From Thermoflexales bacterium (GTDB lineage: Bacteria > Chloroflexota > Anaerolineae > J036 > Brachytrichaceae), in the NCBI GenBank assembly GCA_035433205.1, contig DAORUN010000003.1, forward strand, positions 4,574 to 68,573: DNA of 64,000 bases, read 5' to 3'. Position 1 is the first letter of the stretch, and the number at the start of each line of letters is the position of its first letter. The notes below the pieces were generated by a model that was not told where the DNA came from, made no database searches, and was given only the letters and a program-made list of their open reading frames with translations. The translations under genes and the position numbers were made by a program. Below, piece after piece: positions 4,680 through 57,466 of this stretch.

Positions 4680-4742
4680 ATTGAATGCAAAATACTGAAT
4701 GCAAAACTCGGAAATTAGCATTCTGCGAATTTTGAGTTCAAT
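4680..4742. repeat. Degenerate tandem-unit hairpin (TGAATGC type)
   Basis: TGAATGCAAAA is repeated at 4682-4692 and 4696-4706. An imperfectly complementary arm GCATTCTGCGAATTTTGAGTTCAAT lies at 4718-4742. Intergenic between two membrane-protein genes. Confidence 0.5.
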
Positions 4743-7700
4743 TACGGGTTGTTCGTGTAAACAATGCGGCGGATCTGGCCCTTTTCTGGCGTGGAGGTGA
4801 AAAGCACATACCAGAGGTTGCCATCTGGCCCCTGCAAAATTTGAGATTGGCCGGACGTGGCGGTCTCGCGCGTCTCAAACAGCAGCGGATGGATGCTGTG
4901 CGTTTCGCCATCCTGAATGCGCATATAGCTGATTTTGTCCCAGTTGTAGTCTGCAAACACCAGCGCGCCTTGCAAATAGGCCGGGTAATTTGTGCCGGTA
5001 TATACCGCGCCCATGATGACCGACTCGCTGCGCAGATGTTTGTATGAATATATTGGCGCTTCAATCACTTGGTTGCGCACGGCGTAAAGCGGGTCGCACA
5101 GGGCGCGAACGCGGGCATTGTTTGTCTCGGCGAAGGCGGTCATGATGGCGTTCTCGGCGTTGTTGCCTTCAAAGCACGGCCAGCCAAAGTTTTTTCCGGT
5201 GCCCATATTGATCTCTTCCCATGTCACCTGGCCCACGTCGCCAATATAAAGTTGCTCGGTAACCGGGTGGAGCAGGAAGCGGAATGGGTTGCGCAAGCCG
5301 TAGCTCACGGTCTTGGAGCGATTGCTGTTCGGGTTGCCATCATAGAACGGATTGTCTGGATAGCCCTCACCGGTTTCTGGATTGATGCGCACGATTCTTC
5401 CTGCCAGGCTATCCAGCGATTGCGCGCGGACGGCGCGCAGATCTGTGCCCGCCAAGCCGCCCTCGCCAATGCTGACCCAAAGCGAGCCATCCCTGGCAAA
5501 CAAGACCGTGCCGCCTGCGTGGGTCAGGCTGTCTTCGCCAATACAATCTTGTAAATAGCCGGTTGTTTCGGAATAACACGACTGTTTGGTCTGGTCAAAT
5601 GTGTCATCCACATTGCCGATATTTGCCAGAACGCTGTTTTTGCCCAACAAAATTTTGCGCGCATCCGGTGTCATGCTGGCGCGATTTGGATTTTGCGGAT
5701 CAACCTTGATCCGTTCCAGACGGCTGACGCGCGACCCCATCCCATCTGGTTCAACACCGGGTGGGTCATACACGTAAAACACGTAAAGATAAGGATTTTC
5801 TGGAAAATTGGGGGCAAGCGCAAACCCCAAAACGCCGCGGTCAAACGTGTTATTAACGTCGTCAGAAAGATCCATAAACGGTTCTGGCAGCAACGCTCCG
5901 TTCTGGTAGATCAAAAACTTGCCGCTTTTCTCGGCGATGAACAACCGCCCGTCTTTGGCGAATTGCATCGTTGTCGGCTCGGTCAGCCCGTCAATCACCA
6001 GCTCAGATTTGAAAACAAAGGGCTTGCCGTCTTGTTCGGAAATGGGTTTTGGGAGCGGATATTTGTCGAAAAGGCTCACCTCAAAAATATCGGCGTCATC
6101 GTTGGTATACAACGGCGAGACAACCGGATACAAGCTGGGTGGCACCGGCTGGCCGTGCAGCCGGTCAATGTAAAGATACTTTACGCCGTAGGCATTGTGC
6201 ATTTGCTTGAGGGCCTCTGCGTCGCCATCTTCAAAAACGGCGGTTGCCAATTGCTGGCGCGCCGGGCTGGGCGCCCCGCCCAGGAAAGTCCTGCGCTCTG
6301 CAAAGGCAGGGTAAACCCCGTCCATGCTGGCTGGGCGGTCATCTATGCGGTTGGTGGCAATCACATCTCCGGGGGAGGAGTGTTCGCGTAGCCACCGCAA
6401 ACCCATATACAACGAGCTGGACATGCCCGCATTTGATGTTTCGTAAGCCAGATCGCCCGTTGCAATTTTGAGGAGGGGTGGGGCGAGCGAAGTGATGGGC
6501 GTGATGGCAAATCCTGCCAGCGCCAAAACGCCACAGCCCGCAAGCAGGGCTTTTTTGGCAGATGGGGCGGCTGCGAAATTTTTATCTGCCATTTGGCGAA
6601 GACCCGAAGCCGCCAGCGCCGACCCGGCCACAAAGCCAAAATTAAACGCGGTCAGCGAACCCGCATCGGTGGCGGGAGACGGAACGAGCGCGACAACCGC
6701 GCCAACGACAAACATGACCGCAAGCGCCATCAACGCAGGCGGGATGGGTTTTGCGCGGCTTAGCGCCCATGCCCCGCCAATAATTTGCAACGCCGAGCCA
6801 GCCAGCATAACCACCAGCGTTAAAGCGGGTGGAATTTGCATGGCGGCGCGTTGCGCAGACAAAATCCCCGAATAAAAAATGAGCAGACTAATGAAAGCCA
6901 GCGCCAGCCACAACGCGGCGGGTGTGTTTAACGCGCGGTCGCGGTGGTAGCTCAGGGCCAGAATGCAGGCTGCGCCAACTGCCAGCATGAAGATTGGTTG
7001 CGGGTCGCAACTGGCGCATACGCCCATCAATAACACGATGACGAGCCAATGCGGATTGCGGGCAGAGATTCCATCGGCCTGAACAGAATGTAAAAATTCA
7101 ACCAGAAGCGCGGCAAATAAAATCTGGGCCAGCAAATACGATGGGTTTGACCAGAGCGAGGAAAATCCCGACTGAATGCCAGCCAGCCCTGGCAAAACAA
7201 TTTGCCCCACAAACAAGATCAGGAACGTGGCGATTAAGCCCGAACTGCGTTTGCCATCCACGGCTTTGCCAGCCGCATAAAGCAAAAAAAGCAGGCACAA
7301 CCCGCAGGCGATTGGGTTTAGCCGCAACACGATCTCGGCGATGGGCACGTTTGTTGTATCTGCCGCCGCCGCCAGATGGAACAAGCTGCCCGGCGCATGA
7401 ACAAGCGCCGTCCCCGCCAGTTGCGGGTTCATGACTGGAAAGTGCGCCAACGCCTCGGCGGTGAAGCCGATATGCTGGAGCAGGTCGTTGTTGAGCGCCG
7501 CCTGGCTGAACGTGCCGGGCAGCGGCTGTGTCAGAAACATGCCGATGTAAAAATACAAAATGAACGCAGCCGCCATCAGCGCAAATAGGACGATGCATGT
7601 GTCTTTGGAAATATCCGCGCCCGAGCTTGCGTTTTTTGCGTCATTTGCGCGCGGGGCGCGTTTCCAGAGCGTTAACGCCGAAATGAGGATGACGGGCGCG

Positions 7701-8044
7701 GGATACGCGGCAAAATAGTCGCGCAAGTTCAAGGCCGCGCACACAAAATAAAAAACCGTCGCCAGCGCAAAGCCGGTCGCCCATCCCACGCCAATCAGCC
7801 GGGAGCGGGAGACCGAATTTTTGGATAACGCCTTGTAAAGCAAGCACCCCGGCGCGATGACGAAGACGGCCTGATACAGCGTGTATTTCAGAATATCCAG
7901 TGGCGGAAGATACGCCCGCCAGAGCACAATCAAAACAACAAAAATGAAAACAAGAACAGATAAAAAGGGCTTCCAGCGCAGTTGCTTGAATCTTGATTCT
8001 TGCTGTGCGCGAATATGAGAGCCTTCTTTCGGAGGGTTGGCCAC
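4742..8044 (-). CDS. Fusion protein: N-terminal polytopic membrane (GT-C-like) domain plus C-terminal soluble glucose/sorbosone dehydrogenase-type beta-propeller
   Basis: 1100-aa ORF with a GTG start. The first ~640 aa are hydrophobic helices plus a periplasmic-type linker domain. The C-terminal ~420 aa (ELVIDGLTEPTTMQFAKDGRLFIAEKSGKFLIYQNG...FDRGVLGFALAPNFPENPYLYVFYVYD...GGTVLFARDGSLWVSIGEGG...NFGWPCFEG) match the SGDH/PQQ-dependent sugar dehydrogenase family signature. Confidence 0.7.
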   Translation of the reverse strand: MANPPKEGSHIRAQQESRFKQLRWKPFLSVLVFIFVVLIVLWRAYLPPLDILKYTLYQAVFVIAPGCLLYKALSKNSVSRSRLIGVGWATGFALATVFYFVCAALNLRDYFAAYPAPVILISALTLWKRAPRANDAKNASSGADISKDTCIVLFALMAAAFILYFYIGMFLTQPLPGTFSQAALNNDLLQHIGFTAEALAHFPVMNPQLAGTALVHAPGSLFHLAAAADTTNVPIAEIVLRLNPIACGLCLLFLLYAAGKAVDGKRSSGLIATFLILFVGQIVLPGLAGIQSGFSSLWSNPSYLLAQILFAALLVEFLHSVQADGISARNPHWLVIVLLMGVCASCDPQPIFMLAVGAACILALSYHRDRALNTPAALWLALAFISLLIFYSGILSAQRAAMQIPPALTLVVMLAGSALQIIGGAWALSRAKPIPPALMALAVMFVVGAVVALVPSPATDAGSLTAFNFGFVAGSALAASGLRQMADKNFAAAPSAKKALLAGCGVLALAGFAITPITSLAPPLLKIATGDLAYETSNAGMSSSLYMGLRWLREHSSPGDVIATNRIDDRPASMDGVYPAFAERRTFLGGAPSPARQQLATAVFEDGDAEALKQMHNAYGVKYLYIDRLHGQPVPPSLYPVVSPLYTNDDADIFEVSLFDKYPLPKPISEQDGKPFVFKSELVIDGLTEPTTMQFAKDGRLFIAEKSGKFLIYQNGALLPEPFMDLSDDVNNTFDRGVLGFALAPNFPENPYLYVFYVYDPPGVEPDGMGSRVSRLERIKVDPQNPNRASMTPDARKILLGKNSVLANIGNVDDTFDQTKQSCYSETTGYLQDCIGEDSLTHAGGTVLFARDGSLWVSIGEGGLAGTDLRAVRAQSLDSLAGRIVRINPETGEGYPDNPFYDGNPNSNRSKTVSYGLRNPFRFLLHPVTEQLYIGDVGQVTWEEINMGTGKNFGWPCFEGNNAENAIMTAFAETNNARVRALCDPLYAVRNQVIEAPIYSYKHLRSESVIMGAVYTGTNYPAYLQGALVFADYNWDKISYMRIQDGETHSIHPLLFETRETATSGQSQILQGPDGNLWYVLFTSTPEKGQIRRIVYTNNP

Positions 8045-8068
8045 GATGGAAAAGATTATACGCCTTGC

Positions 8069-13554: not shown

Positions 13555-13584
13555 TTTCTTATTTCTTATCTCTTATTTCTTCAT
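13555..13584. repeat. AAGAAAT-type repeat arm (TTTCTTATTTCTTATCTCTTATTTCTTCAT)
   Basis: It shares TTTCTTATTTCTT with the arm at 14750-14769 and is the reverse complement of the arm at 14673-14697. It overlaps the stop and last codons of the GT4 gene. Confidence 0.6.
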
Positions 13585-14662
13585 ACATTTTCAGCAACGC
13601 ATCCGAGTTTTTGCCCCAGTCTGCGCGGGCTTCGGCAATTTGGCGGTTGGTTTGGCGGATGGCCTCACGGCGGGCTTCGTCCAGCCGCGCGGCTTGCAGC
13701 ATCCATCGCGCCACATCTTCGCTGTCACCCTTGCGGGCCAGCCAGCCATTCTCATCGTGCCGAACCCACTGCGCGTTGCTAGGCACATCGGTCACAATCG
13801 CGGGCAGCCCGGTCGCCATCGCCTCCAGCAAAGATACCGATGAGCCATCATTGTAAGAGCAACTGGCATATACATCCGCATTCTGAAAGGTCGTCCCAAT
13901 CTGGGCGTTGTTGATTCGCCCGGGCAGCGCGATGGCCGTCGCCAGATCATGCTTTTGGATGAAGCGGTGAACTTCGTGAGCCATTGTTCCATCCCCCGCC
14001 AGAACCAGCCGCAACCGCGCGTCTTGCCCCCGCGCCAGCGCAAACCCGCGCAGCAAAACATCAACCCCATAAATCGGTTCCCACGAACGGGTGGATAAAA
14101 ACGTGATTGTTTGGGAGTTGGCAGGCGCGGGGCGGGCGGGGTGGGGCGGCGCAAATTTTTTAAGGTCAATGCCCCAGGGAAATTCCAGGATGCGCAGCGC
14201 GGGCGCAAACTCCGCGATCTTTTGATGCACCACCTGCGAATCGCACAACGCGCTTGCGGCGCGATCCAGCGCGAAATGGGTGGCCCAGCGCCACTCGGCA
14301 TCGCGCTCGGCGTCCTCCAGCATGTCTGATGCCCATGACATGATGACCAGCGGACGAAAGCCAGACAAGGCAGCCATAAGCCCGCAAGTTTGCACTGGCC
14401 CGGCCTGAATCACATCGGGTTTCACCTCGCGGATCACGCGCAGCAAATCTTCCATCAAGGGCAGCGCGTCTCGCGGCGCATCCAGCGCGGCGCGGGTTCC
14501 ATCCCACAAAACAAGATGCGCCCCCGCTGGCAGCGGGCGCGTCTCGTGAATGGCGATGTTGCCAGCCCGCGCGTGCCACACCTCGTGCCCGCCATCCACC
14601 ATTTTGCAGATGAAGCGGTGGTCGTGGCTGGTGTAGCCCCGGCTGATATACAGGATGCGCAT
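13559..14662 (-). CDS. Glycosyltransferase family 4 (GT-B fold)
   Basis: The ORF-track start at 14674 is TTG. The ATG at 14662 gives MRILYISRGY.... The C-terminal EAMATGLPAIVTDV...ENGW block is the E-x7-E type GT4 motif. Confidence 0.8.
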   Translation of the reverse strand: MRILYISRGYTSHDHRFICKMVDGGHEVWHARAGNIAIHETRPLPAGAHLVLWDGTRAALDAPRDALPLMEDLLRVIREVKPDVIQAGPVQTCGLMAALSGFRPLVIMSWASDMLEDAERDAEWRWATHFALDRAASALCDSQVVHQKIAEFAPALRILEFPWGIDLKKFAPPHPARPAPANSQTITFLSTRSWEPIYGVDVLLRGFALARGQDARLRLVLAGDGTMAHEVHRFIQKHDLATAIALPGRINNAQIGTTFQNADVYASCSYNDGSSVSLLEAMATGLPAIVTDVPSNAQWVRHDENGWLARKGDSEDVARWMLQAARLDEARREAIRQTNRQIAEARADWGKNSDALLKMYEEIRDKK

Positions 14663-14672
14663 GATGTTCTGC

Positions 14673-14769
14673 AAATAAGAAATGAAGAAATAAGAAACTT
14701 TCCGCGGGCAACATTTTTGAGAAGCAGAAAATTTGCCCCCCGGATTCTCTTTCTTATTTCTTCATTTCT
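14673..14769. repeat. AAGAAAT-type long hairpin (20-bp perfect stem, 52-nt loop with inner GC stem)
   Basis: 14678-14697 AGAAATGAAGAAATAAGAAA is exactly complementary to 14750-14769. The loop contains GGGCAA...TTGCCC. It lies between the lysC stop and the GT4 start. Confidence 0.8.
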
Positions 14770-14776
14770 CTTTTCT

Positions 14777-16216
14777 TTATCCAATCATCGCGTGAGCAGC
14801 GCGGACGGCGTTTTTGGCATCCTCGCCGCCAACCACCACGCTGATTACGCACTCGCCCATGCCCTGCGCGATGGACAAAATGTTGATGCCAAGCTCGCCC
14901 AGCGCAGAGAAGACTTTGCCGCCCACCCCCGGCGTATCGGCAATGCCGTTGCCCACGCAAGTGATGATGGCCGCGTTCTCGTGCGTGTTCACGTTGTCAA
15001 TATCACCTTCGCTAATCTCGCGGTCAAACTCGCGTTGCAATTCCGCCACCACTTTGGCCGATGACAATTGCGGCACCACCAGACAAATATTTTGTTCCGA
15101 TGAAGCCTGAGTAATCATAAACACGCTGGTGCCGGTGCGGGCCACGCTGGTAAACGTGCGCCCGGCAATGCCCGGCACGCCGCGCATTCCAGCGCCGGTC
15201 ACGGTCACCACGCACACTTTTTCCAGCAGGGTGATGGCTTTCACGGGCGAGCTGTTTCGCTCTCCGTCTTTCGTGATCAACGTGCCGGGGTGATCTGGGT
15301 TGAATGTGTTTTTCACGCGCAGGGGAATGTGCTGCTCAATCAGCGGCGCAATCGTGAGCGGGTGAAGCACCTGCGCCCCAAAGAATGCCAAGCCAGCCAT
15401 CTCGGCCTGCGAGAGCACATCCACCGTTTTGGCCGATGGCTCAATGCGCGGGTCGGTGGTCAGCACGCCATTCACATCGGTGTAGTTCAACACAATGTCG
15501 GCATCCAGCGCGGCGCCCACGATGCTGGCGCTGTAATCACTTCCGCCGCGACCCAGCGTGGTCGGAATTCCCTTCGGCGTGCTGCCAATAAAACCGGTCA
15601 CAACCGGCACAACGCCTTTTTGCAAAAGCGGGGTCAGCCGCGCCCTGGTCATTTGTTTGGTGATGTCCATCAGAGGGGCGGCGTTTTGGTAATGATCGTT
15701 TGTGATCACAAATTCCGTGGCATCCAGGCTGATGGCGTCGGTGCCCTTGCTGCGCAGCGCCGCCGCCAAAATTCGCGCGGCCATTCGCTCACCCAGCCCG
15801 CTAATCGCGTCCAGCGCGCGCGGGGTGATCTCGCCCAGCACTTTTACGCTTCCGCACAAAGTCTCAAAGCCATCCAGCAATTGCTCAATCTCCGCGCTAA
15901 TTTCCGCGCGTTCATCCTCGTTTTCAATCACGGCCTTGATGGCATTTTCGTGCTTGGCCGAGAGTTCTCGCCGGATGCGGCGATACGTTTCACCATCGCC
16001 ATCGGCGGCGGTTTTGGCCGCGTTCAAAAGCGAATCGGTTACCTTGATTTGATCTGCTGGGGCCTTGTTGCCTGGCAGGGGCTTGCCCATTGCCGAGGTG
16101 ACGACCACCACGTGATCCCACGTGTGCGTGGCCTGTTTGACGATTTCGCACACCTGCTGCATCGCCTCTGCGCTGCCAACGGATGTGCCTCCGAATTTAA
16201 GAACTGATGATGACAT
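14777..16216 (-). CDS. lysC: Aspartate kinase
   Basis: MSSSVLKFGGTSVGSAEAM kinase N-terminus, a TLGRGGSDYSA motif and C-terminal ACT-type repeats. The 21 extra codons of the tracked ORF (to 16279) are encoded by the GAATTCT hairpin and were trimmed. Confidence 0.9.
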   Translation of the reverse strand: MSSSVLKFGGTSVGSAEAMQQVCEIVKQATHTWDHVVVVTSAMGKPLPGNKAPADQIKVTDSLLNAAKTAADGDGETYRRIRRELSAKHENAIKAVIENEDERAEISAEIEQLLDGFETLCGSVKVLGEITPRALDAISGLGERMAARILAAALRSKGTDAISLDATEFVITNDHYQNAAPLMDITKQMTRARLTPLLQKGVVPVVTGFIGSTPKGIPTTLGRGGSDYSASIVGAALDADIVLNYTDVNGVLTTDPRIEPSAKTVDVLSQAEMAGLAFFGAQVLHPLTIAPLIEQHIPLRVKNTFNPDHPGTLITKDGERNSSPVKAITLLEKVCVVTVTGAGMRGVPGIAGRTFTSVARTGTSVFMITQASSEQNICLVVPQLSSAKVVAELQREFDREISEGDIDNVNTHENAAIITCVGNGIADTPGVGGKVFSALGELGINILSIAQGMGECVISVVVGGEDAKNAVRAAHAMIG

Positions 16217-18689: not shown

Positions 18690-18743
18690 AAGAGCCTGAA
18701 AGTCTTGCCTGACAGTAATCAGGGTGAGACCTTCAGGCTCTTC
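18688..18743. terminator. Bidirectional terminator-like nested hairpin between convergent holA and glgP
   Basis: GAAAGAGCCTGAAAGTCT pairs with AGACCTTCAGGCTCTTC (about 15/17). An inner CCTGA-cagtaa-TCAGG stem is present and a T-rich tract follows. Confidence 0.65.
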
Positions 18744-21964: not shown

Positions 21965-21986
21965 GCGCCCGGAGCGTTCCGGGCGC
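21965..21986. repeat. CGCCCGGAGC-family hairpin
   Basis: GCGCCCGGA-gcgt-TCCGGGCGC, a 9-bp stem between the DUF58 and BatA-like genes. Confidence 0.6.
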
Positions 21987-21994: not shown

Positions 21995-23833
21995 ATGAAC
22001 ATCCTCAACCCTCTCGCCCTTTTGTTTGCGCTGCTGGCCGTGCCAATTGTGCTGCTTTACCTGCTGCGTTTGCAGCGGCGCGAACAAAGCGTATCCAGCA
22101 CGCTGCTTTGGCGGCAATCTACGCTAGACCGCGAAGCAAACGCCCTCTGGCAAAAGTTGCGCCCCAACATTTTGTTGTTTTTGCAATTGCTCACCCTGGC
22201 GTTTTTGGTGTTCGCGCTCATTCGGCCATACATCAACCAGCCGGGCCAAACCCCGGCCCGCACAATTGTTTTGTTAGACGCCTCGGCCTCGATGTTGGCC
22301 GAAGATGTGCCGCCCACGCGCTTTTCCGCCGCAAAAAAACAGGTGAGCAACCTGATTGACGACCTTGGCGCAAACGACCAGCTTGCCCTCATTTTGATGG
22401 GCGCATCGCCCCGCGCGTTGAGCGGTTTTAGCGCCAGCAAAGCCGAGCTGGCCGCCGCGCTTGATGCCGCCCAGCCCGCGCTGGAAGCCGCAAACTGGGG
22501 CGCGGCCATCTCATTGGCGCAGGCCATCGCGCAGGGGGATGAGAACACGGCTTTTGTCGTTGTGAGCGATGGCGCAAACGCCGATGACGCGAAACTCCTC
22601 ACCGGCAATGTTAAATTTATTCCGGTGGGCGCAAACGGCGAAAATGTTTTTATCAGCGCGTTCACTGTGCGCCGAACCGTGCGCGGGCTGGCCGCGTTTG
22701 TGCGCGTGAACAACTCTGGCAAGAGCGCGGCCAGTGTGCTGGTCTCGCTCCGTTCTGGTGATGCCTTGCTGGATGCCCGGACGCTGGATGTTCCCGCGGC
22801 TGGCTCGGCCACATGGACGCAGAACGACCTTGACCCCGCGCTGCCCCATCTGACCGCGCGAATTGACCAAACCCCAAACGCCGCCCAGGATAATCTTGCC
22901 GCCGATGACGCCGCATATGCCATCAACCCGGTGACCAGCATACGCCGCGCGTTGCTGGTCACGCGAGGCAACCGCTTTTTGGAGCAAGCCCTTGGCGCGT
23001 TGCCGGGGCTGCAGGTCACGCGCGTGGTGCCATCGGTGGATGGGTTGACCGCCGGGCAAGATTTGTCTGGCGCGGTCTACGATTTGATTGTGCTGGATAA
23101 CATCACCGCCACGCTGCCATCCAACGCAAATGTGTTGATGATTGGGGCGGGGGCGCAGTTTAGCAGCACGGGCGTGTTTAGCAACACAGGCTTTGTTCGC
23201 GCCGAGGCAAGCCCCATCGCCCAGAATGTGGATTGGCGCGGCGTAAATGTGCTGGAAGCGCAACATCTTGCGCCGCCCGCATGGTTGCAGCCGGTCATTC
23301 AGGCGCAGGGTGGGGGGCTGGTTTTTGCGGGGGATGGCGCATCCGCCGGGCTTGGCCGCGTGGTCGCCCTTCCGTTTGATCTGTTCAAAAGCGACCTGCC
23401 CTTGCAAATTGCGTTTCCGGTTTTGGTGGCTAATTCGGTGGATTGGCTTTCGCCCGCGCAAGGTCTTGCGCTGCCAGCCAGCGTCAAACCGGGCGAGGTG
23501 ATCGCCTTGCCCGGCGGGTCTCAGGTTGTTTTGCCCGCAGGCGCAAGCATGGCCGCGCCAGATGGCGTTTTTGCCGATACGGCTCAGCCGGGCATTTACG
23601 CCGTGCAAACCCCGCGCGGGCGGGGCTACTTTGCGGTTAATTTTTTGGATGCGCGCGAGTCTGACACGACGCCACAACCCAACTTGCAATTTGCCAACGC
23701 CAACGCGCAAACGCAAACCGCGCAAGGCTTGTCTCAGCGCGAGTTGTGGAACATCCTCGCCGCCCTCGCGCTTGTTTTATTGACGATTGAGTGGTGGGTC
23801 TACCAGCGAGGGTTGAGGACGCGCAAAGCCTAA
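21995..23833 (+). CDS. BatA-like membrane protein with N-terminal aerotolerance-type TM domain and vWA domain
   Basis: MNILNPLALLFALLAVPIVLLYLLRLQRRE N-terminus, a VLLDASASM MIDAS-like block and a C-terminal TM helix. Confidence 0.7.
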   Translation: MNILNPLALLFALLAVPIVLLYLLRLQRREQSVSSTLLWRQSTLDREANALWQKLRPNILLFLQLLTLAFLVFALIRPYINQPGQTPARTIVLLDASASMLAEDVPPTRFSAAKKQVSNLIDDLGANDQLALILMGASPRALSGFSASKAELAAALDAAQPALEAANWGAAISLAQAIAQGDENTAFVVVSDGANADDAKLLTGNVKFIPVGANGENVFISAFTVRRTVRGLAAFVRVNNSGKSAASVLVSLRSGDALLDARTLDVPAAGSATWTQNDLDPALPHLTARIDQTPNAAQDNLAADDAAYAINPVTSIRRALLVTRGNRFLEQALGALPGLQVTRVVPSVDGLTAGQDLSGAVYDLIVLDNITATLPSNANVLMIGAGAQFSSTGVFSNTGFVRAEASPIAQNVDWRGVNVLEAQHLAPPAWLQPVIQAQGGGLVFAGDGASAGLGRVVALPFDLFKSDLPLQIAFPVLVANSVDWLSPAQGLALPASVKPGEVIALPGGSQVVLPAGASMAAPDGVFADTAQPGIYAVQTPRGRGYFAVNFLDARESDTTPQPNLQFANANAQTQTAQGLSQRELWNILAALALVLLTIEWWVYQRGLRTRKA

Positions 23834-23854
23834 AGGTCTCGCAGACTTTTAGGC
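23828..23854. terminator. 27-nt hairpin GCCTAAAGGTCT-CGC-AGACTTTTAGGC at a convergent gene pair
   Basis: 12-bp stem with one G-U pair. It overlaps the BatA-like stop and lies 2 nt before the stop of the PyrF-like gene. Confidence 0.7.
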
Positions 23855-23855
23855 T

Positions 23856-24566
23856 TTAAGAAAATTGTTCCCTGAGCGCCAGCGCTTTTTTGCGGGCATC
23901 CTCGGCAAAATTCATCGTGCGGCTGGCATACAAAATCTCCGCGCCAACCGCGCACAGCGGGCGCAAGCCGTCTCTTAGGGTCGTGTGCGTTTTTGCAAAC
24001 GCGCGGGTGGCCGATGGGTGAGCCGCGGCATTCATCACCAGCCAGGGCGTGCTCAGGTCAAACGAGAGCAAAGATTCCGGCTTGGCCGCAGATACCCATC
24101 CGCCATATTCCTTGACGCCTTTATCCGAGATGGTTCCGGCTGGATAAAAATAAAATTGATTCGCATAGGCATTATTTTTATCCAAACTAGACCTAAAAAA
24201 GCTAATACCTAAAGTCAAGGCATCACATTTCATTTGCTCAAACACGCCGCGCAAAAAATACGATCCTGCTTCAATTTCGCCCAGCCGCGCATCACAAATG
24301 AGGGGCAGATCATGTGGCACAGCCCGCACAATGCGTTCCAACGCCACCATCCCCGCCGCACCTTCGGCCAAATAATACGCAGGATTGATGACATACCCGC
24401 ACACCACGTCTTGCGTCGCTTCAATAATCGCCCGCGCAAACGGCAACATCGGCTCATCGTATTGCTGGATGGAGATTGGCGAGTTCGCGGGCACAATATC
24501 CAGGCTTACGCACAAACAAGAGTTGTTTTTGCGCTGGGCGGCAAGGGCTTTTTCTCGGAAGGTCAT
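23856..24566 (-). CDS. Orotidine-5-phosphate decarboxylase-fold protein (type-2 PyrF-like, divergent active site)
   Basis: The N-terminal NNSCLCVSLDI resembles the LxVGLDP block. The expected DAKRGDI block reads CDARLGEI, and the expected KPN/KIN block reads VINP. Confidence 0.5.
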   Translation of the reverse strand: MTFREKALAAQRKNNSCLCVSLDIVPANSPISIQQYDEPMLPFARAIIEATQDVVCGYVINPAYYLAEGAAGMVALERIVRAVPHDLPLICDARLGEIEAGSYFLRGVFEQMKCDALTLGISFFRSSLDKNNAYANQFYFYPAGTISDKGVKEYGGWVSAAKPESLLSFDLSTPWLVMNAAAHPSATRAFAKTHTTLRDGLRPLCAVGAEILYASRTMNFAEDARKKALALREQFS

Positions 24567-24575: not shown

Positions 24576-24620
24576 AGGACGATGGACGATTGATCGTCTA
24601 TGGTCTATCGTCCATCGTCT
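24576..24620. repeat. GGACGAT-type hairpin
   Basis: GACGATGGACGAT (24578-24590) is complementary to ATCGTCCATCGTC (24607-24619). Confidence 0.75.
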
Positions 24621-29775: not shown

Positions 29776-31143
29776 TTACTTGTCGCCTTCCGCCTCGCAA
29801 ATCTGCCAGAATTTCTTCCATGCGCGGCCGCTCACTTCTTTACCTTTCGCGGCAATCTCGGCCTCATCCAGGGTGAGGAGTTTTCGGTCGGCCATGAGCA
29901 CGCGCCCGCCCACAATCGTGTGCGTCACCATCCCGCCATCCATGCCAAAGACCATGTGCCACGGCACGTTATCTTTGTGAATCTCGGTGAACGGATGGTA
30001 GTCCATCAAGATCACATCGCCCGGTGAGCCAGCCGCAAGAACGCCGGTGGTTTGCGGGAAGAACATTTGCGCAATTTTGGCGTTGTTCTGATACACCATG
30101 CCCGTGATTTTGTCCGCGCCCATCGCGCGTGGGTCCAGCGCGGTGACTTTATGCAGTTTGTCGCAAATGGTCATCTCGGCAAACGCGTCGTTGCTAAAGC
30201 CATCGTTGCCCAACCCCACGCAAATGCCGCACTCCAGCATGGTTTGCACGCGGGCCGCGCCCACGCCGTTGTTCATGTTGCTGCGCGGCTGGTGCATCAC
30301 TTTTGCGCCTGCGGCTTTTACCAGCTCCATCTCGGCCTCATCAATGTGAATGCAATGCGCCAACATGCTTTTGCTGTTGAGCGCATTGTGCCTGGCCAGC
30401 CGCTGCACCGCCCGCATGTTGTGGTGTTTGATGGCCTCCAGTTCGTCTGCGTTGTCTTCTGCGACATGGATGTGCAAAGGGATGCCCAGCTCGTTGGCAA
30501 GCCCGGCGCAGGTGTCCAGCGTGGCATCGCTCACGGTAAACTGCGCATGCACGCCAAAAGCCGCCGCCAAATTCTGAATTCTGAATTCTGAATTCTGAAT
30601 TCGTTTTGCAAATCGAACATTTTCTTCAATACCGCGTTTTGCGCCGTCCATGCCGTTGCGGTCGGTCACTTCGTAACACAGCCCGGCGCGCAGGCCGCTG
30701 GCCGCCACCGCGTCGGCAATTGCATCCAAAGAGCCTTCGATGGCATCCGGGCTGGCGTGATGGTCAATAAGGGTGGTTGTGCCGTGTTTGATGGCGTCTA
30801 CCAGGCATACCAGCGCGGAGTATTTGCTGCCTTCAATATCCAGAGCGCGATCCAACCGCCACCACAATTTTTGCAAAATTTCTACAAAGTTTTTGGCGGG
30901 CGCGCCCGGGATGTAAAGCCCTCGCGCAAAAGCGCCATAAAAATGGGTGTGCGAGCAGATGTTGCCCGGAAGAAGATACTTGCCCCCCGCGTCAATCGTG
31001 GTTGCGCCTGCGGGCGCGGCGATGAGGCCCTCGCTAATCTGGGCGATCACGCCGTCCGTTATCAACAGGCTGCCATCCCGAACGACGTGGTTGGGCTGGG
31101 TCATGGTGATGATGTTTGCGTGGGTTATGAGCAAGTTGGACAT
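29776..31143 (-). CDS. Amidohydrolase superfamily, SsnA/chlorohydrolase-like aminohydrolase
   Basis: Trimmed to the ATG at 31143 (MSNLLITHANIITM...). LLPGNICSHTHFYGAFARG is a metal-binding HxH block. It contains the in-frame GAATTCT repeat that encodes RIQNSEFRIQN. Confidence 0.7.
   Translation of the reverse strand: MSNLLITHANIITMTQPNHVVRDGSLLITDGVIAQISEGLIAAPAGATTIDAGGKYLLPGNICSHTHFYGAFARGLYIPGAPAKNFVEILQKLWWRLDRALDIEGSKYSALVCLVDAIKHGTTTLIDHHASPDAIEGSLDAIADAVAASGLRAGLCYEVTDRNGMDGAKRGIEENVRFAKRIQNSEFRIQNLAAAFGVHAQFTVSDATLDTCAGLANELGIPLHIHVAEDNADELEAIKHHNMRAVQRLARHNALNSKSMLAHCIHIDEAEMELVKAAGAKVMHQPRSNMNNGVGAARVQTMLECGICVGLGNDGFSNDAFAEMTICDKLHKVTALDPRAMGADKITGMVYQNNAKIAQMFFPQTTGVLAAGSPGDVILMDYHPFTEIHKDNVPWHMVFGMDGGMVTHTIVGGRVLMADRKLLTLDEAEIAAKGKEVSGRAWKKFWQICEAEGDK
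30569..30603. repeat. Five tandem GAATTCT-type heptamers inside the SsnA-like CDS
   Basis: AAATTCT GAATTCT GAATTCT GAATTCT GAATTCG. Read on the minus strand it encodes RIQNSEFRIQN in frame. Confidence 0.9.
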
Positions 31144-32232: not shown

Positions 32233-32295
32233 GGATGTAGAGGATGACAGGGATGATGCGATTTCCAAGTCATCCAAGTCATCGAAGTCATCCCC
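32233..32295. repeat. Tandem 9-nt-unit hairpin (GGATGAnnn / GTCATCnAA)
   Basis: GGATGTAGA GGATGACAG GGATGATGC ... GTCATCCAA GTCATCGAA GTCATCCCC, between the rfbB stop and the rnz start. Confidence 0.7.
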
Positions 32296-35042: not shown

Positions 35043-35054
35043 AACATGCTGGAT

Positions 35055-35087
35055 ATTGGGTATTGGGTAGGCGCTCAAATACCCAAT
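35055..35087. repeat. ATTGGGT-type hairpin
   Basis: ATTGGGT ATTGGGT A ... TACCCAAT, just after the lipoprotein stop. Confidence 0.65.
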
Positions 35088-35091
35088 GTCC

Positions 35092-35167: not shown

Positions 35168-35249
35168 GCGCTGGTGGTGAAATTGGCAGACACGCCATCT
35201 TGAGGGGGTGGTGCCGCAAGGCTTGCAGGTTCAAGTCCTGTCCAGCGCA
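35168..35249 (+). tRNA. tRNA-Leu (anticodon GAG)
   Basis: Hand-folded. Acceptor GCGCTGG/CCAGCGC, anticodon arm CCATC-TTGAGGG-GGTGG, long variable arm TGCCGCAAGGCT, T arm GCAGG-TTCAAGT-CCTGT, discriminator A. Confidence 0.85.
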
Positions 35250-35255: not shown

Positions 35256-35293
35256 AAACCTCACAGGTCTCGCAGACCTGTGAGGTTTGTTTT
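35256..35293 (+). terminator. Rho-independent terminator after tRNA-Leu
   Basis: AAACCTCACAGGTCT-CGC-AGACCTGTGAGGTTT followed by GTTTT. It shares the GTCTCGCAGAC core with the 23828 and 28471 elements. Confidence 0.8.
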
Positions 35294-39881: not shown

Positions 39882-39914
39882 AGCGCCCGGAGCAGTTGAA
39901 CCGCTCCGGGCGCT
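39882..39914. repeat. CGCCCGGAGC-family hairpin inside the PTS gene array
   Basis: AGCGCCCGGAGC-agttgaacc-GCTCCGGGCGCT, a 12-bp perfect stem between the oxidoreductase stop and the ptsH start. Confidence 0.75.
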
Positions 39915-41971: not shown

Positions 41972-42040
41972 ATTGCATTGATTGCTAGTTGCTGGCTGCC
42001 AGCGGGTTAACCACTAGCAATCAGCAACTAGCAACTAGCC
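41972..42040. repeat. AGCAACT-type tandem-unit hairpin between the two srlE halves
   Basis: TGCTAGTTGCTG (41983-41994) is complementary to CAGCAACTAGCA (42022-42033). The 3' arm reads ACTAGCA ATCAGCA ACTAGCA ACTAGCC. Confidence 0.75.
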
Positions 42041-43812: not shown

Positions 43813-43860
43813 AGCGCTCTGGGCGTTCAGCCGAACTTGTTCGGACACGCCCGGAGCGCT
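43813..43860. repeat. CGCCCGGAGC-family nested hairpin between E2 and gutM
   Basis: AGCGCTCTGGGCGT ... CCGAAC-tt-GTTCGG ... ACGCCCGGAGCGCT. The outer arms are 13/14 complementary. Confidence 0.7.
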
Positions 43861-49624: not shown

Positions 49625-49684
49625 GGACGATAGACCATGGACGATGGACGATTAAAGGCCGCATATCGTCCATCGTCCATCGTC
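49625..49684. repeat. GGACGAT-type hairpin (16-bp stem)
   Basis: ATGGACGATGGACGAT (49637-49652) is complementary to ATCGTCCATCGTCCAT (49665-49680), followed by TTTTT. It lies between the GS-like and HPS genes. Confidence 0.8.
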
Positions 49685-49687
49685 TTT

Positions 49688-51195: not shown

Positions 51196-51876
51196 ATGAT
51201 TACGCGCAAGGGCATAACTCAGCATTTTTCGGCGGATGGGTTTGTGCAAGGCGATGAACGCTGGCAAGTGGCGCGGTTTGCAAACGGCGTGGTGCGTCTG
51301 GATGCGGAGGTGACCCGCATTGCGCCATTCCCAGAACCGCGCCAGGAGTCGTTTAGTCTCACCTTGGCGGTCCGGGCGTGTCCCAACAAGTTGGGCGAAC
51401 CGCCCGGACCGCTATTCAGGGCGCTGGTTCCCGGCCAGCGCGAGGCGCGGATGAGCGTGGTGGACAACCGCGCCATGTTTTGCTGGCAACACGGCCACGA
51501 AACGCATCGCGCAGAAAAAGCGTGGGGTGATGAAAACGAGATTGATTACAACTCGCCGCTGTTTATGACCGCCTTGATTTGGCAGAGCGCCCTCGCGCCC
51601 GGACAAACCCGCGCGTATACCCGCGCCCAACTGGATGCGCTCACATTTGAGCCGCATTTTGCCCTGCAAACCCTGGCGCGGCTGGAGGACGAAGATCATG
51701 AGACACGTTTTGGCATAATGCGGCTGGCGCATTACGTGCAAACTCCTGCAACCTCTCAGCCCCATCCCCAAAAAGAAAGCGCGCATTTTTGGTGTGATGA
51801 GGATGGCATTGTGTTTGACTTGATTTCGCATAATGGCGCGAGGCAAGTGTTAACCGCGGTAAGTTTCCCCGAATGA
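51196..51876 (+). CDS. Hypothetical protein
   Basis: 226-aa ORF with coding-like composition. It lies 22 nt upstream of the ABC permease gene. I recognise no motif and no Walker A. Confidence 0.4.
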   Translation: MITRKGITQHFSADGFVQGDERWQVARFANGVVRLDAEVTRIAPFPEPRQESFSLTLAVRACPNKLGEPPGPLFRALVPGQREARMSVVDNRAMFCWQHGHETHRAEKAWGDENEIDYNSPLFMTALIWQSALAPGQTRAYTRAQLDALTFEPHFALQTLARLEDEDHETRFGIMRLAHYVQTPATSQPHPQKESAHFWCDEDGIVFDLISHNGARQVLTAVSFPE

Positions 51877-54310: not shown

Positions 54311-54319
54311 CCCAAGTTA

Positions 54320-55138: not shown

Positions 55139-55146
55139 CTTTGATT

Positions 55147-55211
55147 GACGGGAGACCGAAGACGGAGGACGGTTTCAGCCGTCCCCGGTCTCCTGTCTTC
55201 CGTCTTTTTTT
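55147..55211. repeat. GACGGAG-type tandem-unit hairpin with T-tract
   Basis: GACGGGA GACCGAA GACGGAG GACGG-tttcag-CCGTCCC CGGTCTC CTGTCTT CCGTCTT TTTTT. The GT4 stop lies in the loop and its last codons lie in the 3' arm. Confidence 0.7.
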
Positions 55212-56377: not shown

Positions 56378-56392
56378 AATGCAACGAGAAAT

Positions 56393-56454
56393 AAGAAGCA
56401 AGAAACAAGGGAATTTGCGCGCAATTTGTGATTATTCCTCATTTCTTGCTTTTT
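56393..56454. repeat. AAGAAAT-type nested hairpin
   Basis: AGCAAGAAA (56397-56405) is complementary to TTTCTTGCT (56442-56450). Inner GGAAT/ATTCC pairing and the TTGCGCGCAA palindrome are present. The 5' context reads GAGAAAT AAGAAGC AAGAAAC. Confidence 0.7.
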
Positions 56455-57413: not shown

Positions 57414-57417
57414 AATC

Positions 57418-57466
57418 AATTACGAATTACGAATTACGAATTACGCATGATTAGTAATTCGTAATT
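57418..57466. repeat. AATTACG-type tandem-unit hairpin
   Basis: Four exact AATTACG copies (57418-57445) are followed by TAATTCGTAATT (57455-57466), which is complementary to any two adjacent units. Confidence 0.85.

Follow-up and report, generated by a model that had tools for sequence, protein, structure and literature searches.

Fast-changing heptamer hairpins are wedged between the genes of one uncultured Chloroflexota bacterium, and probably also lie in frame within its housekeeping genes. Our preferred reading, to which we give slightly better than an even chance, is that they are slippage-driven self-complementary microsatellite cassettes which lodge where they are tolerated and fold into stable stem-loops between cistrons; each cassette would comprise a short array whose unit is 7 nt long (sometimes 8 or 9 nt), an unrelated loop, and the complementary array. 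The window, by which we mean the whole stretch analysed, is 64,000 nt of the Thermoflexales bacterium (Chloroflexota) assembly GCA_035433205.1 (contig DAORUN010000003.1, positions 4,574-68,573, forward strand), and element coordinates are positions within it. Three features go beyond the initial annotation of this DNA: a polarity rule, cassette turnover between strains, and in-frame copies inside genes.

Heptamer hairpins are enriched in the window

The initial annotation described hairpins with stems of tandem 7-nt units at more than a dozen junctions, and we find them at 13 gene junctions. A comparison with dinucleotide-shuffled sequence, which the annotation had suggested and which we ran on the window, supports their enrichment: i) Tandem Repeats Finder reports 15 tandem arrays of period 7, whereas 40 shuffles average 1.7 and never exceed 4; ii) an ungapped inverted-repeat scan reports 25 strong hairpins (shuffle mean 4.3, maximum 8); and iii) 7 of these 25 have 7-periodic arms by a strict test (lag-7 self-identity of at least 70%), against 0 in 20 shuffles. 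No signal comparable to that at lag 7 was found at lags 4-6 or 9-11 in the arms of the window hairpins.

The 14 intervals originally listed fared unevenly. Nine are clear tandem-unit hairpins (14673, 16229, 24576, 32233 with its 9-nt unit, 35055, 41972, 49625, 55147, and 57418), one is a loosely periodic hairpin, and two are weak; the remaining two, at 13555 and 30569, are solo arrays, neither having a complementary partner inside 60 nt, and the latter lies within the coding sequence of an amidohydrolase and not, as had been stated, at a junction. A hairpin at 59281 was absent from that list. GC-rich inner stems, also claimed earlier, are present at 14673, 37798, and 56393, and cassettes in the window span ~40-105 nt (Table 1). 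A further family in the window, GCGCTCCGGGCG, is REP-like and not part of the heptamer hairpins.

Table 1. Repeat elements of the window and their surroundings (folds in kcal/mol; PDH, prephenate dehydrogenase)
Positions	Strand	Element	Location	Lag-7 identity	Remarks
4680..4742	.	weak imperfect hairpin	spacer between GSDH-like gene and next gene		RNA fold -14.8; in 5' arm TGAATGC alternates with AAAATAC (14-nt period); one SNP in strain L092
13555..13584	.	solo (TTTCTTA) x3.9 array	overlaps stop codon of glycosyltransferase gene 13559-14674		inverse array 1.1 kb away, at 14673
14673..14777	.	(AAATAAG)n ... (TTTCTTA)n hairpin	fills aspartate kinase to glycosyltransferase spacer		perfect 20-bp outer stem plus inner GC-rich stem; fold -42 to -47; 5' arm 8 nt longer in strain L091
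16229..16296	.	(TGAATTC)n hairpin, 33-nt arms, 2-nt loop	between HD-domain gene and aspartate kinase	0.75
24576..24620	.	RGACSAT-family hairpin: GGACGAT x2, then ATCGTCT ATGGTCT ATCGTCC ATCGTCT	abuts stop codon at 24619; start codon at 24566, 10 nt off	0.89
30570..30602	.	perfect (AATTCTG) x4.7 array, 33 nt	in frame in MTA/SAH-deaminase-like amidohydrolase coding sequence		read as RIQNSEFRIQN; T>A in eight strains makes array a palindrome; length constant across strains
32233..32295	.	nonamer variant (GGATGAnnn)3 ... (TCnAAGTCA)3	fills epimerase to metallo-beta-lactamase gene spacer
35051..35091	.	(ATTGGGT)2 hairpin, then TTTT	3' of gene 33336-35042 (+), 5' of tRNA-Leu	0.79	one unit fewer in strain L112
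37798..37876	.	loosely periodic (GTAACnn) hairpin, weak case	between PtsI gene and glyoxalase-like gene		inner GC stem (GCGCTAATCAGCGC); sense-strand fold beats antisense by 9
41972..42040	.	(TTGCTAG/TTGCTGG)n hairpin	between two glucitol PTS EIIB/C genes	0.71	sole case with clear Shine-Dalgarno (AAGGAG) after hairpin
49625..49685	.	RGACSAT-family hairpin, 4+3 units	fills 70-nt glnA to pyrF spacer	0.89
55147..55211	.	GACGGRR-family hairpin	upstream glycosyltransferase stop codon in loop, so one arm codes the C-terminal tail	0.76	T7 run on antisense strand
56393..56454	.	AAGAAnC / GTTTCTT hairpin, arms loosely periodic	PDH / glycosyltransferase spacer		inner GCGCGC stem
57418..57466	.	(AATTACG)4 ... 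(CGTAATT)2 hairpin	fills 55-nt M50 peptidase gene to PDH spacer	0.95
59281..59340	.	(TAAGCGC)2 hairpin, 21-nt stem	convergent junction	0.61	GTTTTT next; probably doubles as terminator

Junction placement and termination

The claim that the hairpins are found at junctions of every orientation, tandem, convergent, and divergent, did not survive inspection: in the window 12 of the 13 junctions are co-directional, 1 is convergent, and none is divergent. Within apparent operons 0-5 nt separate the stop codon from the hairpin and 3-12 nt separate the hairpin from the next start codon, a Shine-Dalgarno sequence being usually absent. That most lack a U-tract, as had been remarked, holds on the sense strand, where one follows only the 35051 and 59281 hairpins; 10 of the 12 co-directional cases have none, and four carry a T-run on the antisense strand instead. 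Most of the elements are not canonical terminators. Of 12 cases compared, 9 fold more stably on the sense strand, which is not significant, and no excess of G-U over A-C was found among sense-strand stem mismatches (3 versus 9, few cases).

We consider it distinctly unlikely that these are ordinary intrinsic terminators or attenuators whose stems happen to be repetitive. Hairpins do lie directly 3' of stop codons, two of them ahead of the sense-strand T-runs just mentioned, and the same window has non-periodic perfect palindromes at convergent junctions (18690, 23825, and 37216) which look like bidirectional terminators; however, such a role sits poorly with the missing sense-strand U-tracts, with the position so close to the next start codon, and with the presence of cassettes inside the UvrA and LeuRS coding sequences, and it accounts for neither the 7-nt periodicity nor the polarity described below.

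Unit-step instability between strains

Thirty-five contigs of this species, drawn from no fewer than 15 independent assemblies, carry the same elements and together tile the window at identities of at least 97% (99.5-99.9% in the ten tabulated), and an assembly artefact is thereby excluded. The elements make up 1.4% of the window and contain 16 of its 25 strain indel records, several of the 16 tracing to one replaced allele (in strain L115); SNP density is 0.039 inside elements versus 0.010 outside. Clean whole-unit 7-nt steps between strains are seen at 57418 (where L083 and L090 carry three units, not four), 49678, and 35063, and a step at 14698 combines +7 with an extra 1-nt change. At 49625, L081 and L089 carry an additional ATGGTCT which yields a perfect 4+4 stem (-56 kcal/mol), while L115 has another hairpin altogether, of the GACGGRR family (units GACGGGA/GACGGAG), between identical flanks. 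At 32233, eight strains share a second allele with 4+4 rather than 3+3 units, 9-nt steps in both arms together, many substitutions, and unchanged flanks. Arrays thus gain and lose whole units between strains, bearing out the slippage-prone architecture proposed at the outset, and the two arms can change together; moreover, the cassette sequence can differ wholly between strains or close relatives while the flanks remain intact.

Orthologous junctions in relatives

A junction that carries a cassette in the window can lack one at the orthologous position of a close relative, consistent with lineage-specific gain. In the window a hairpin occupies the 55-nt spacer between the M50 peptidase and PDH genes; relatives with 83%, 74%, and 69% PDH identity have spacers of 2, 9, and 16 nt, respectively, and no hairpin there. 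Upstream of topA, L001 shows an overlapping TAATG in place of the hairpins present in the window and in L003. Unit families, on the other hand, are kept across these relatives at two junctions: AAGAAAT-family arrays recur between the PDH and glycosyltransferase genes in the relatives with 83% and 74% PDH identity, and a GACGGnn-family hairpin occupies the glycosyltransferase to ABC2 transporter gene junction (55147) in the relative with 69%. That a unit family stays in place at corresponding junctions even where protein identity falls to 69% speaks for vertical persistence.

Unit families and polarity

As the initial annotation had noted, the same units appear at distant loci of the window (GGACGAT at 24.6 and 49.6 kb, TGAATTC at 16.2 and 30.6 kb), and the families are dispersed, with many loci in this species and others well outside it. 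RGACSAT dimers match 11 times where 2.3 are expected, and RGACSAT hairpins occur in >119 metagenome contigs with unrelated loops and flanks; 11 of these contigs fit the tetranucleotide signature of the window (r = 0.92-0.98), one pair representing the same locus. A count of 35 heptamer hairpins in 181 kb, most of them on ten signature-matching contigs, is made up mainly of RGACSAT and GACGGRR, the two multi-copy unit families in this species; recurring units are found in contigs of 39-70% GC. Copies have only the unit in common, loops (2-54 nt), flanks, and arm lengths all being unrelated. The purine-rich arm is nearly always 5' (purine-first 29 versus 3; 7 versus 0 in the GACGGRR family), and variant units are mirrored between arms in 70% of cases versus 62% expected, too weakly for the arms to be simple fold-back copies.

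The polarity invites an explanation by DNA-break repair, in which a slippage-prone or unit-templated polymerase would add the same purine-rich repeat to both 3' ends before joining, leaving an array, junction filler, and the complementary array. Such scars are the only idea considered here that predicts a fixed purine-first order; they also predict loops of arbitrary sequence and length, weakly correlated arm lengths and unit variants, a small unit vocabulary common to genomes, and cassettes arising de novo in coding sequences or tight spacers without target duplications. We nonetheless regard this as improbable: the argument is purely inferential, with no enzyme to assign, and we know of no bacterial precedent for such repeat addition; many window units, such as TGAATTC and AATTACG, are not purine-rich; and hairpin-guided evolution better accounts for the joint change of both arms at 32233 and for the restoration of a mirror unit at 49678.

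In-frame copies within genes

Contigs assigned by tetranucleotide signature and a shared sample series, not by assembly continuity, probably to the same genome or species as the window carry cassettes in frame within genes. UvrA has two, both of which align to gaps in the 2r6f structure; LeuRS also has two, one of which clearly adds ~10 residues net over 1h3n and the other of which lies in a variable segment; further in-frame cassettes lie in genes which, from their sequence alone, we take to be ABC-F-like and PurB-like. UvrA has four variable insertion sites in this clade, and at site C two alleles (L158 and L244) from genes with 92% nucleotide identity drop to 42% in the hairpin alone, both still folding at -47 to -58 kcal/mol. 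Cassettes occupy permissive sites of two kinds, stop-to-next-start gaps of a few bases and variable stretches of housekeeping proteins, in which the cassette is translated in frame; copies in coding sequences cannot act as intercistronic elements.

These in-frame copies recall Rickettsia palindromic elements (PMC10969869), and raise the question of whether the cassettes are non-autonomous mobile elements, like these or like MITEs and REPINs, whose unit arrays or folded hairpin would be recognised by a transposase encoded elsewhere. Unit families shared by many loci in one species and by the metagenome contigs, a hairpin between M50 and PDH that three relatives lack, and the exchange of one cassette for another between intact flanks would all suit mobility. 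We think it unlikely, however, for several reasons: i) nothing but the unit is common to the copies, and neither a terminal inverted-repeat consensus nor a target-site duplication was seen at ~10 sites inspected, so that the REP/MITE likeness originally suggested does not hold up; ii) the gene calls covering the window include no transposase or Y1/RAYT gene, the RAYT or IS200-type enzyme once proposed thus not being encoded there, and their sole recombinase is an integrase just past the window end; iii) vertical persistence at orthologous junctions argues against it; and iv) unit-step polymorphism is typical of microsatellites.

REP/BIME elements bind gyrase and IHF, and the hairpins might likewise be DNA-level protein-binding or cruciform sites, or nucleoid-organising sites. 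Several stems are equally good on both strands, the G-U signature is absent, stem potential survives complete sequence turnover even inside genes, and the unit vocabulary is limited and recurrent; but no protein is known to bind these heptamer hairpins, the coexistence of many different units in one genome argues against a single sequence-specific binder, and a 7-bp period is out of step with the helical repeat of B-DNA. We judge this very improbable.

Relation to known repeats

Among known repeats, the inverted GGGAATC heptamer pairs of Xanthomonas, the STRR repeats of cyanobacteria, and Rickettsia palindromic elements come closest. Extra length in helix P12 of the RNase P RNA was reportedly traced by Vioque in 1997 to STRR arrays. 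E. coli REPs can stabilise upstream mRNA; whole-unit length variation is, as far as we know, not a described REP feature. The initial view that the architecture matches no described family was too strong, since convergent pairs of heptamer arrays are reported in Xanthomonas and heptamer arrays in cyanobacteria, Beggiatoaceae, and Chloroflexus; we found no published description of the many-unit, gene-invading paired form.

In Xanthomonas, GGGAATC arrays are paired convergently in 70 of 186 cases in X. campestris and 75 of 183 in X. axonopodis (Rehm et al. 2015, PMC4692102). As here, two nearby convergent arrays of one heptamer can form a stem-loop, sites are mostly intergenic with the single or paired state conserved, and the G-rich array comes first, matching our polarity; however, Xanthomonas has essentially one G-tract unit, read as quadruplex-forming (PMC4692102), whereas in the window unrelated units number at least 10 and most lack G-tracts. 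The phylum also differs, and the window cassette fills the stop-to-start spacer exactly. The STRRs of Calothrix, Anabaena, and Nostoc are likewise dispersed intergenic tandem heptamers, often near start codons, with a vocabulary particular to each lineage (bioRxiv 10.1101/2022.06.06.494920; PMC4692102), but few Nostoc GGGGAYT arrays are paired (PMC4692102) and the units differ from ours. The TAACTGA repeats of marine Beggiatoaceae form 2-6-copy arrays, mostly just 5' of start codons, and recur in distant taxa by no evident transfer mechanism, but they comprise a single unit and are nearly all direct, with one inverted case in 170 sets (MacGregor 2015, PMC4679880). Within the same phylum, Subirana and Messeguer 2019 (PMC6749651) described (GATAGRA)n of Chloroflexus aurantiacus as satellites, that is, tandem arrays, with many copies per genome; our AGACGAT variant, rotated to GATAGAC, is one base from GATAGRA. 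Rickettsia palindromic elements lie between genes and in frame in unrelated metabolic and housekeeping genes, adding peptide, but are ~150 bp long and form full-length sequence families with a conserved peptide (PMC10969869), whereas only the 7-nt unit is shared here. REPs and REPINs with RAYT transposases are also short extragenic palindromes at many junctions, but have a conserved consensus and an associated RAYT gene and are not built of tandem units (PMC3116915).

Origin and function

We infer an origin and function for the cassettes. Slipped-strand mispairing would lengthen and shorten the arrays, and the arms would be kept roughly matched either by repair or template switching guided by the folded hairpin or by selection for pairing. 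Three things are left unexplained by slippage alone: the purine-first polarity, the finding of the same units in contigs of 39-70% GC, and the arising of a cassette with both arms complete within a coding sequence. In transcripts, junction copies would fold into very stable stem-loops (about -15 to -56 kcal/mol) that lie directly between cistrons and lack a U-tract, and we therefore expect their main effect to be on mRNA, where they could protect or process the upstream 3' end or couple translation of the neighbouring cistrons; they are probably not efficient terminators. Their persistence may partly reflect self-renewal and not benefit to the cell. The cassettes are a Chloroflexota version of a heptamer-repeat habit known in cyanobacteria, Xanthomonas, Beggiatoaceae, and Chloroflexus.

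Heptamer arrays and hairpins in the window

The genes in the window (56% GC), most of them on the minus strand, are of ordinary housekeeping or carbohydrate-related kinds; the topoisomerase I of the window finds its closest match (70% identity) in a Thermoflexales MAG, and the best 80 relatives of this protein are all from Chloroflexota. Tandem Repeats Finder reports 15 period-7 arrays in the window, compared with 1.7 on average and 4 at most in 40 dinucleotide shuffles; period 8 gives a single row where the shuffles predict 2.2, and periods 6, 9, and 12 are elevated, as coding sequence would give. An inverted-repeat scan finds 25 strong hairpins (shuffle mean 4.3, maximum 8), and in seven hairpins the arms reach 70% identity or more at lag 7, which none does in 20 shuffles; no signal like that at lag 7 was found in the window at lags 4-6 or 9-11. 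The initial annotation, which had proposed a dispersed family of junction hairpins built of tandem 7-nt units, thus stands up to a shuffled control for both arrays and hairpins. Nine of its 14 intervals are clear array-armed hairpins, and a tenth, at 56393, is a hairpin with loosely periodic arms; the cases at 4680 (a 14-nt alternation) and 37798 (loosely periodic) are weak, and those at 13555 and 30570 are solo arrays rather than hairpins. One further hairpin, at 59281-59340, had been overlooked.

Fourteen of the resulting 15 elements are intergenic or lie at gene ends, the solo array at 13555 overlapping a stop codon. Heptamer hairpins occupy 13 of roughly 49 gene junctions, of which 12 are co-directional, one convergent, and none divergent, at odds with the earlier impression that all three junction types are used alike. 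A search of the whole window against Rfam 15 at gathering score matched tRNA alone.

Anatomy of the junction hairpins

In the sense orientation, a junction hairpin begins 0-5 nt past the upstream stop codon and ends 3-12 nt ahead of the next start codon; at 55147 the hairpin loop contains the stop codon, and only at 41972 is a clear Shine-Dalgarno sequence left. Fold energies lie between about -15 and -56 kcal/mol. On the sense strand, the hairpins at 35051 and 59281 alone are followed by a T-run, which is missing at 10 of the 12 co-directional junctions, bearing out the claim that most elements have no U-tract; at four other junction hairpins the T-run is on the antisense strand. Judged by sequence, most junction hairpins appear not to combine the GC-rich stem and the U-tract on the transcribed strand that mark an intrinsic terminator. 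Stem mismatches on the sense strand are G-U in 3 cases vs A-C in 9 (an automatic strand call, and just 10 hairpins), and the sense fold is more stable than the antisense fold in 9 of 12 cases, a difference that is not significant.

Other repeats and TopA in the window

Two further palindrome families were seen (see table). A separate GC-rich, REP-like family with arm GCGCTCCGGGCG has 14 matches vs 1.6 expected; two of its pairs lie inside called coding sequences (a YfhO-like gene, 26273-28495, and an ORF, 51196-51876), and strain contig L081 has a 3-nt indel at 51362, adjoining the second of these pairs. The perfect-palindrome family AAACCTnnnAGGTCT - 3 nt - AGACCTnnnAGGTTT has 5 matches vs 0.14 expected; one copy lies within the YfhO-like coding sequence, and the others, at convergent junctions and beside tRNA-Leu, are likely to be bidirectional terminators. 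The 260-nt spacer around tRNA-Leu holds three hairpin types in a row. TopA itself begins with a DUF5679 zinc-ribbon and a Lys/Ala/Pro-rich linker ahead of the Toprim domain, and its N-terminal MEAFCFKCRGKH/MEAYC..KCRGKH motif is kept in the eight closest relatives examined (L001-L008).

Positions of palindromes, arrays, and genes with in-frame hairpins (window positions unless a contig is named)
Feature	Sequence	Position	Remark
REP-like palindromes, arm GCGCTCCGGGCG	window	21966-21985, 27185-27215, 39882-39914, 43814-43859, 51367-51412; also 17646, 3346, 48802	
AAACCTnnnAGGTCT/AGACCTnnnAGGTTT palindromes	window	28150-28182, 35256-35288	
Related to AAACCTnnnAGGTCT/AGACCTnnnAGGTTT	window	18690-18742, 23825-23857	
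tRNA-Leu and its hairpins	window	35092-35156, 35168-35249	perfect 20-bp-stem hairpin before, AAACCT palindrome after the tRNA gene
TopA, DUF5679 zinc-ribbon and linker	window	61072-61400	N-terminal
Glycosyltransferase gene	window	13559-14674	between inverted arrays
AAGAAAT-family arrays around that gene	window	13555-13584, 14673-14697	inverted, 1.1 kb apart
Third AAGAAAT-family array	window	14750-14777	
(AAGAAAT)n array	L238 (83% relative)	2300-2362	contig end falls within it
UvrA gene	L158	6619-9696	2 in-frame hairpins
LeuRS gene	L148	3-2591	2 in-frame hairpins
ABC-F-like gene	L143	4832-7042	2 in-frame hairpins
PurB-like gene	L138	2143-3555	1 in-frame hairpin
G-rich heptamer hairpins	L146 and L193	L146: 99-203, 2867-2970; L193: 11726-11784	GGGATTA/GGGACTA and TGGGGTT

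Variation among strains

MAGs GCA_035426025.1, GCA_035426445.1, and GCA_049290055.1 carry this species. Exact-protein look-ups in ENA, NCBI, JGI, and Logan gave 35 contigs belonging to 15 or more independent assemblies, which tile the entire window at a mean depth of 7.3 and are 99.5-99.9% identical to it in ten contigs checked. The elements are present in all of them, so that an assembly artefact is excluded. Across the panel, SNPs occur at 667 positions of the window, along with 25 indel records; 16 of the 25 indel records fall inside the 15 elements, whose share of the window is 1.4%, with several of the 16 deriving from one replaced allele in contig L115. SNP density is 0.039 in the elements and 0.010 in the rest of the window, and the called lengths of neighboring genes vary between strains as the cassettes (array, unrelated loop, complementary array) shift start and stop calls.

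Unit copy number does change between strains, as the initial annotation had supposed it might, and in 7-nt steps: i) at 57418, AATTACG occurs four or three times; ii) at 35055 (step at 35063), ATTGGGT occurs twice or once; and iii) at 49678, one allele has an additional ATGGTCT, which again mirrors the variant AGACCAT and completes a perfect 4+4 stem of -56 kcal/mol. The 5′ arm at 14673 has an allele longer by 8 nt (7 plus 1; step at 14698). At 32233, two alleles of 3+3 and 4+4 nonamers differ by 9 nt per arm and by many substitutions, both arms having changed in parallel.

At 49625, L115 carries another hairpin, of GACGGGA/GACGGAG units, that spans exactly the stop-to-start spacer between identical flanks, with no additional SNPs in adjacent bins. 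Several explanations were considered and set aside. A recombination tract around replaced alleles finds no SNP excess in the adjacent 500-nt bins; the loops of the L115 allele and the other GACGGRR copies differ everywhere; the common variant ATGGTCT of 24576 and 49625 is no evidence of direct copying between them, because the same variants recur in unrelated metagenome contigs; and strict fold-back copying is rejected as sole origin because variant units are mirrored between arms in 70% of cases vs 62% expected, a weak excess.

The glycosyltransferase gene flanked by inverted AAGAAAT-family arrays, with a third such array close by (see table), may carry the trace of a rearrangement, or of an older hairpin at which the gene was inserted.

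Gain and persistence in relatives

Local gene order is kept in relatives whose prephenate dehydrogenase (PDH) is 83%, 74%, and 69% identical to that of the window, allowing individual junctions to be followed. The spacer from the M50 peptidase gene to the PDH gene is 2, 9, and 16 nt without a hairpin in these relatives and 55 nt with the AATTACG hairpin in the window, so that this hairpin is a recent gain. The next junction, from PDH to the glycosyltransferase, has arrays of the AAGAAAT family in the window, the 83% relative, and the 74% relative, and a GTGTAAn hairpin in the 69% relative; the GACGGnn hairpin between the glycosyltransferase and ABC2 transporter genes is retained in the 69% relative. 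The junction upstream of topA holds a non-periodic hairpin in the window, one of ATTGGAG units in L003, and one of GTGTAAT units in the 69% relative; L001 has no hairpin there, its genes overlapping as TAATG.

Spread beyond the window and polarity

A metagenome scan with the pattern (GGACGAT)2, a gap of 1-31 nt, and (ATCGTCC)2 found the RGACSAT hairpin in at least 119 contigs; the matches listed range from 39 to 70% GC, and all share the unit variants GGACGAT, AGACGAT, and AGACCAT in unrelated loops and flanks. Period 7 dominates these loci (419 kb), with 288 rows vs 64 for period 8 and 70 for period 9. Eleven of the longer RGACSAT contigs correlate with the window at 0.92-0.98 in tetranucleotide composition, compared with 0.96-0.98 for the window against itself and at most 0.87 for other Chloroflexota; from this signature, and from a sample series common with the strain panel, we regard them as further pieces of the same genome or of a sister genome. 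(The GC-rich REP-like motif had been tried as a marker of same-species contigs, proved not specific, and was replaced by tetranucleotide correlation.) Two of the eleven, L158 and L192, cover one locus; ten of the eleven contigs and the window together (181 kb) contain 35 heptamer hairpins, mostly of the RGACSAT and GACGGRR families, several within a few kb of one another, with 27 at junctions and 8 in coding sequences.

A single metagenome contig, L121 from soil, could be placed by its protein, whose named relatives are Roseiflexaceae, Chloroflexi, and Anaerolineales MAGs. The trait is patchy within Chloroflexota, since the topA surroundings of 80 other Chloroflexota species (1.28 Mb) hold no perfect dimer of any of 13 units, and dense period-7 arrays near topA occur mainly in L002 and L003, the second- and third-best TopA matches. 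GAGGACT and GAGTCCT hairpins were also seen in L026 (JBLNDL010000099.1), a contig labeled as a Sphingomonadaceae MAG whose TopA is 56% identical to that of the window; it may be mis-binned.

The arms have a consistent polarity. Of the period-7 hairpins found independently of the search pattern, 29 have a purine-rich and 3 a pyrimidine-rich 5′ arm, compared with 69 vs 28 among non-periodic hairpins; GACGGRR pairs are purine-first in 7 of 7 cases, and no reversed RGACSAT pair was found in any sequence examined. As the structure is palindromic, the purine-first rule is valid on both strands. A control on viral contigs gave 1 match vs 0, numbers too small to weigh. Freedom from stop codons in all frames was dismissed as a special property of the common units, being true of half of all heptamers.

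In-frame copies inside genes

Eight hairpins lie within long open reading frames of contigs assigned by tetranucleotide signature, the contigs concerned probably belonging to the genome of the window: seven in UvrA, LeuRS, and two genes we take from their sequence alone to be ABC-F-like and PurB-like (see table), and one in another gene. Such cassettes add peptides of roughly 13-35 residues to conserved proteins, and the peptides are rotations of a translated unit (DDGRWTM, RPSSIVH) with variable linkers between. In the L158 UvrA, an RGACSAT hairpin encodes ERDDRPQTMDDGQPSSSIVHRPSS and a GACGGRR hairpin encodes SETEDGGRKTAKSVARPPSSV, both aligning with gaps in the Geobacillus UvrA structure 2r6f; in the L148 LeuRS, one hairpin adds about 10 residues net compared with 1h3n, and the other lies in a variable segment. 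An alignment of 18 UvrA homologs has four variable insertion sites, seen across Thermoflexales- and Anaerolineae-like MAGs, where the inserted peptides look like translated repeat arrays, and UvrA measures 983-1088 residues in this clade vs 952-958 in the closest outside relatives.

A second uvrA sequence, L244, is 92% identical to L158 at the nucleotide level and retains the first hairpin with few SNPs, but at the second site (site C) an octamer-array hairpin, TGACACGG, stands in place of the heptamer hairpin; identity falls to 42% at this site only, and both alleles fold at -47 to -58 kcal/mol. Thus unit length can change in place while the stem is kept. Within the window, the solo array at 30570-30602 is a perfect 33-nt (AATTCTG) x4.7, read in frame as RIQNSEFRIQN in an MTA/SAH-deaminase-like amidohydrolase; a one-unit slip would shift the frame, and the array has the same length in all 10 strains, in eight of which a T>A change turns it into a palindrome. 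It was rejected as a net insertion, as it lies in a variable segment with none clear relative to the 4f0r structure.

Comparison with known systems

The initial annotation had not recognized the architecture from described repeat families, but it is not new in kind, because dispersed heptamer arrays and convergent inverted pairs have both been described. In many bacteria, few long microsatellites are as over-represented as heptamers (Mrazek 2007, as relayed in PMC4679880 and PMC4692102), and dispersed arrays are known from cyanobacteria (PMC4692102; bioRxiv 10.1101/2022.06.06.494920) and Beggiatoaceae (PMC4679880). Like such heptameric SSRs (STRR-like), the window elements are over-represented head-to-tail 7-nt copies, polymorphic in unit steps, and mainly intergenic. 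Chloroflexus aurantiacus has (GATAGRA)n arrays (PMC6749651), a unit one base off a rotation of AGACGAT. Among the closest parallels are the convergent inverted heptamer pairs of Xanthomonas (PMC4692102): the 13 window hairpins are likewise convergent opposite-strand arrays close together, their polarity agrees, and persistence at orthologous junctions is also seen, two junctions keeping their unit family in relatives at 69-83% identity. Unlike the Xanthomonas unit, with its G-tract capable of forming a G-quadruplex, the window units ATTGGGT and the GACGGGA variant have a single G3 run each in one or two copies, too few for four G-tracts, and no other window unit has a G run of 3 or more. Telomere-like G-rich hairpins resembling the G-tract units of Xanthomonas and Nostoc were seen in two metagenome contigs, L146 and L193, that also hold RGACSAT hairpins (see table).

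A REP/MITE-like reading, also proposed at the outset, fares less well. REP/REPIN elements have a conserved palindromic consensus of 20-40 nt, whereas the window has at least 10 unrelated units, with loops and flanks unrelated even within one unit family, and no RAYT (Y1 transposase) gene is found among the gene calls covering the window. MITEs have terminal inverted repeats, a conserved interior, and target-site duplications; window-type cassettes vary in length by the unit, and about ten inspected sites revealed neither a duplication nor conserved ends. Rickettsia palindromic elements similarly insert in frame into unrelated genes (PMC10969869), but they are about 100-150 bp long and conserved in full-length sequence and peptide, whereas here the unit alone is conserved.

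Our literature search found no match to an RGACSAT-type unit in a bacterial context, and no description of many unrelated units per genome, exact stop-to-start filling, cassette replacement between strains, a general polarity rule, a wide metagenomic spread such as that of RGACSAT, or in-frame copies in housekeeping proteins.

Origin and significance

We conclude that the elements are paired self-complementary heptamer microsatellites which gain or lose whole units, sit at permissive sites, and are replaced fast while the stem is kept; this description is well supported. As to how the cassettes arise and act, we infer that slipped replication would resize the arrays, that hairpin-guided repair, or selection, would keep the arms matched, and that at junctions very stable U-less stem-loops bridging stop and start codons would act at the RNA level, although the copies in coding sequences mean that an intercistronic role is not the whole story.

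Slippage does not predict the purine-first polarity. It also leaves unexplained why genomes that differ widely in GC have a common vocabulary, why arm variants mirror each other only weakly, and how whole cassettes come to stand in tight spacers and in coding sequences with no target duplication, and these features keep two other accounts alive. One is that the cassettes are mobile elements; the varied units and the inspected insertion sites speak for something other than a REP or a MITE, and we consider a mobile origin unlikely. The other, that they form by extension of broken ends during repair, would accommodate the four features, and seems to us very improbable. Returning to slippage and repair, we raise as a tentative and rather doubtful proposal that passive slippage alone is insufficient, and that Chloroflexota (at least Thermoflexales-, Anaerolineae-like, and Roseiflexaceae-like soil lineages) might harbor undescribed, self-renewing palindromic microsatellite cassettes, defined by a small purine-rich heptamer vocabulary (RGACSAT, GACGGRR, and others) and a fixed purine-first polarity, which colonize stop-to-start junctions and permissive in-frame segments of essential proteins, turn over completely between close strains with an always stable stem, and are generated or maintained by a dedicated sequence-specific activity. 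Such an activity would follow from the polarity, the vocabulary shared across GC, and the complete cassettes without target duplications; a candidate would be repeat addition at DNA ends during break repair.

Cassettes of this kind may break short-read assemblies. Heptamer repeats were first reported in cyanobacteria, and the species of the window offers a tractable natural experiment on their origin and role: a single genome holds dozens of cassettes with many units, at least 15 assemblies reveal unit change, parallel arms, and replacement, and relatives at 69-83% identity reveal gain and long persistence at the same junctions. What goes beyond the systems we found described is the purine-first rule, the presence of one unit family in at least 119 metagenome contigs, and the in-frame copies in UvrA and LeuRS; the generating activity, if real, would be a new kind of genome-shaping mechanism.
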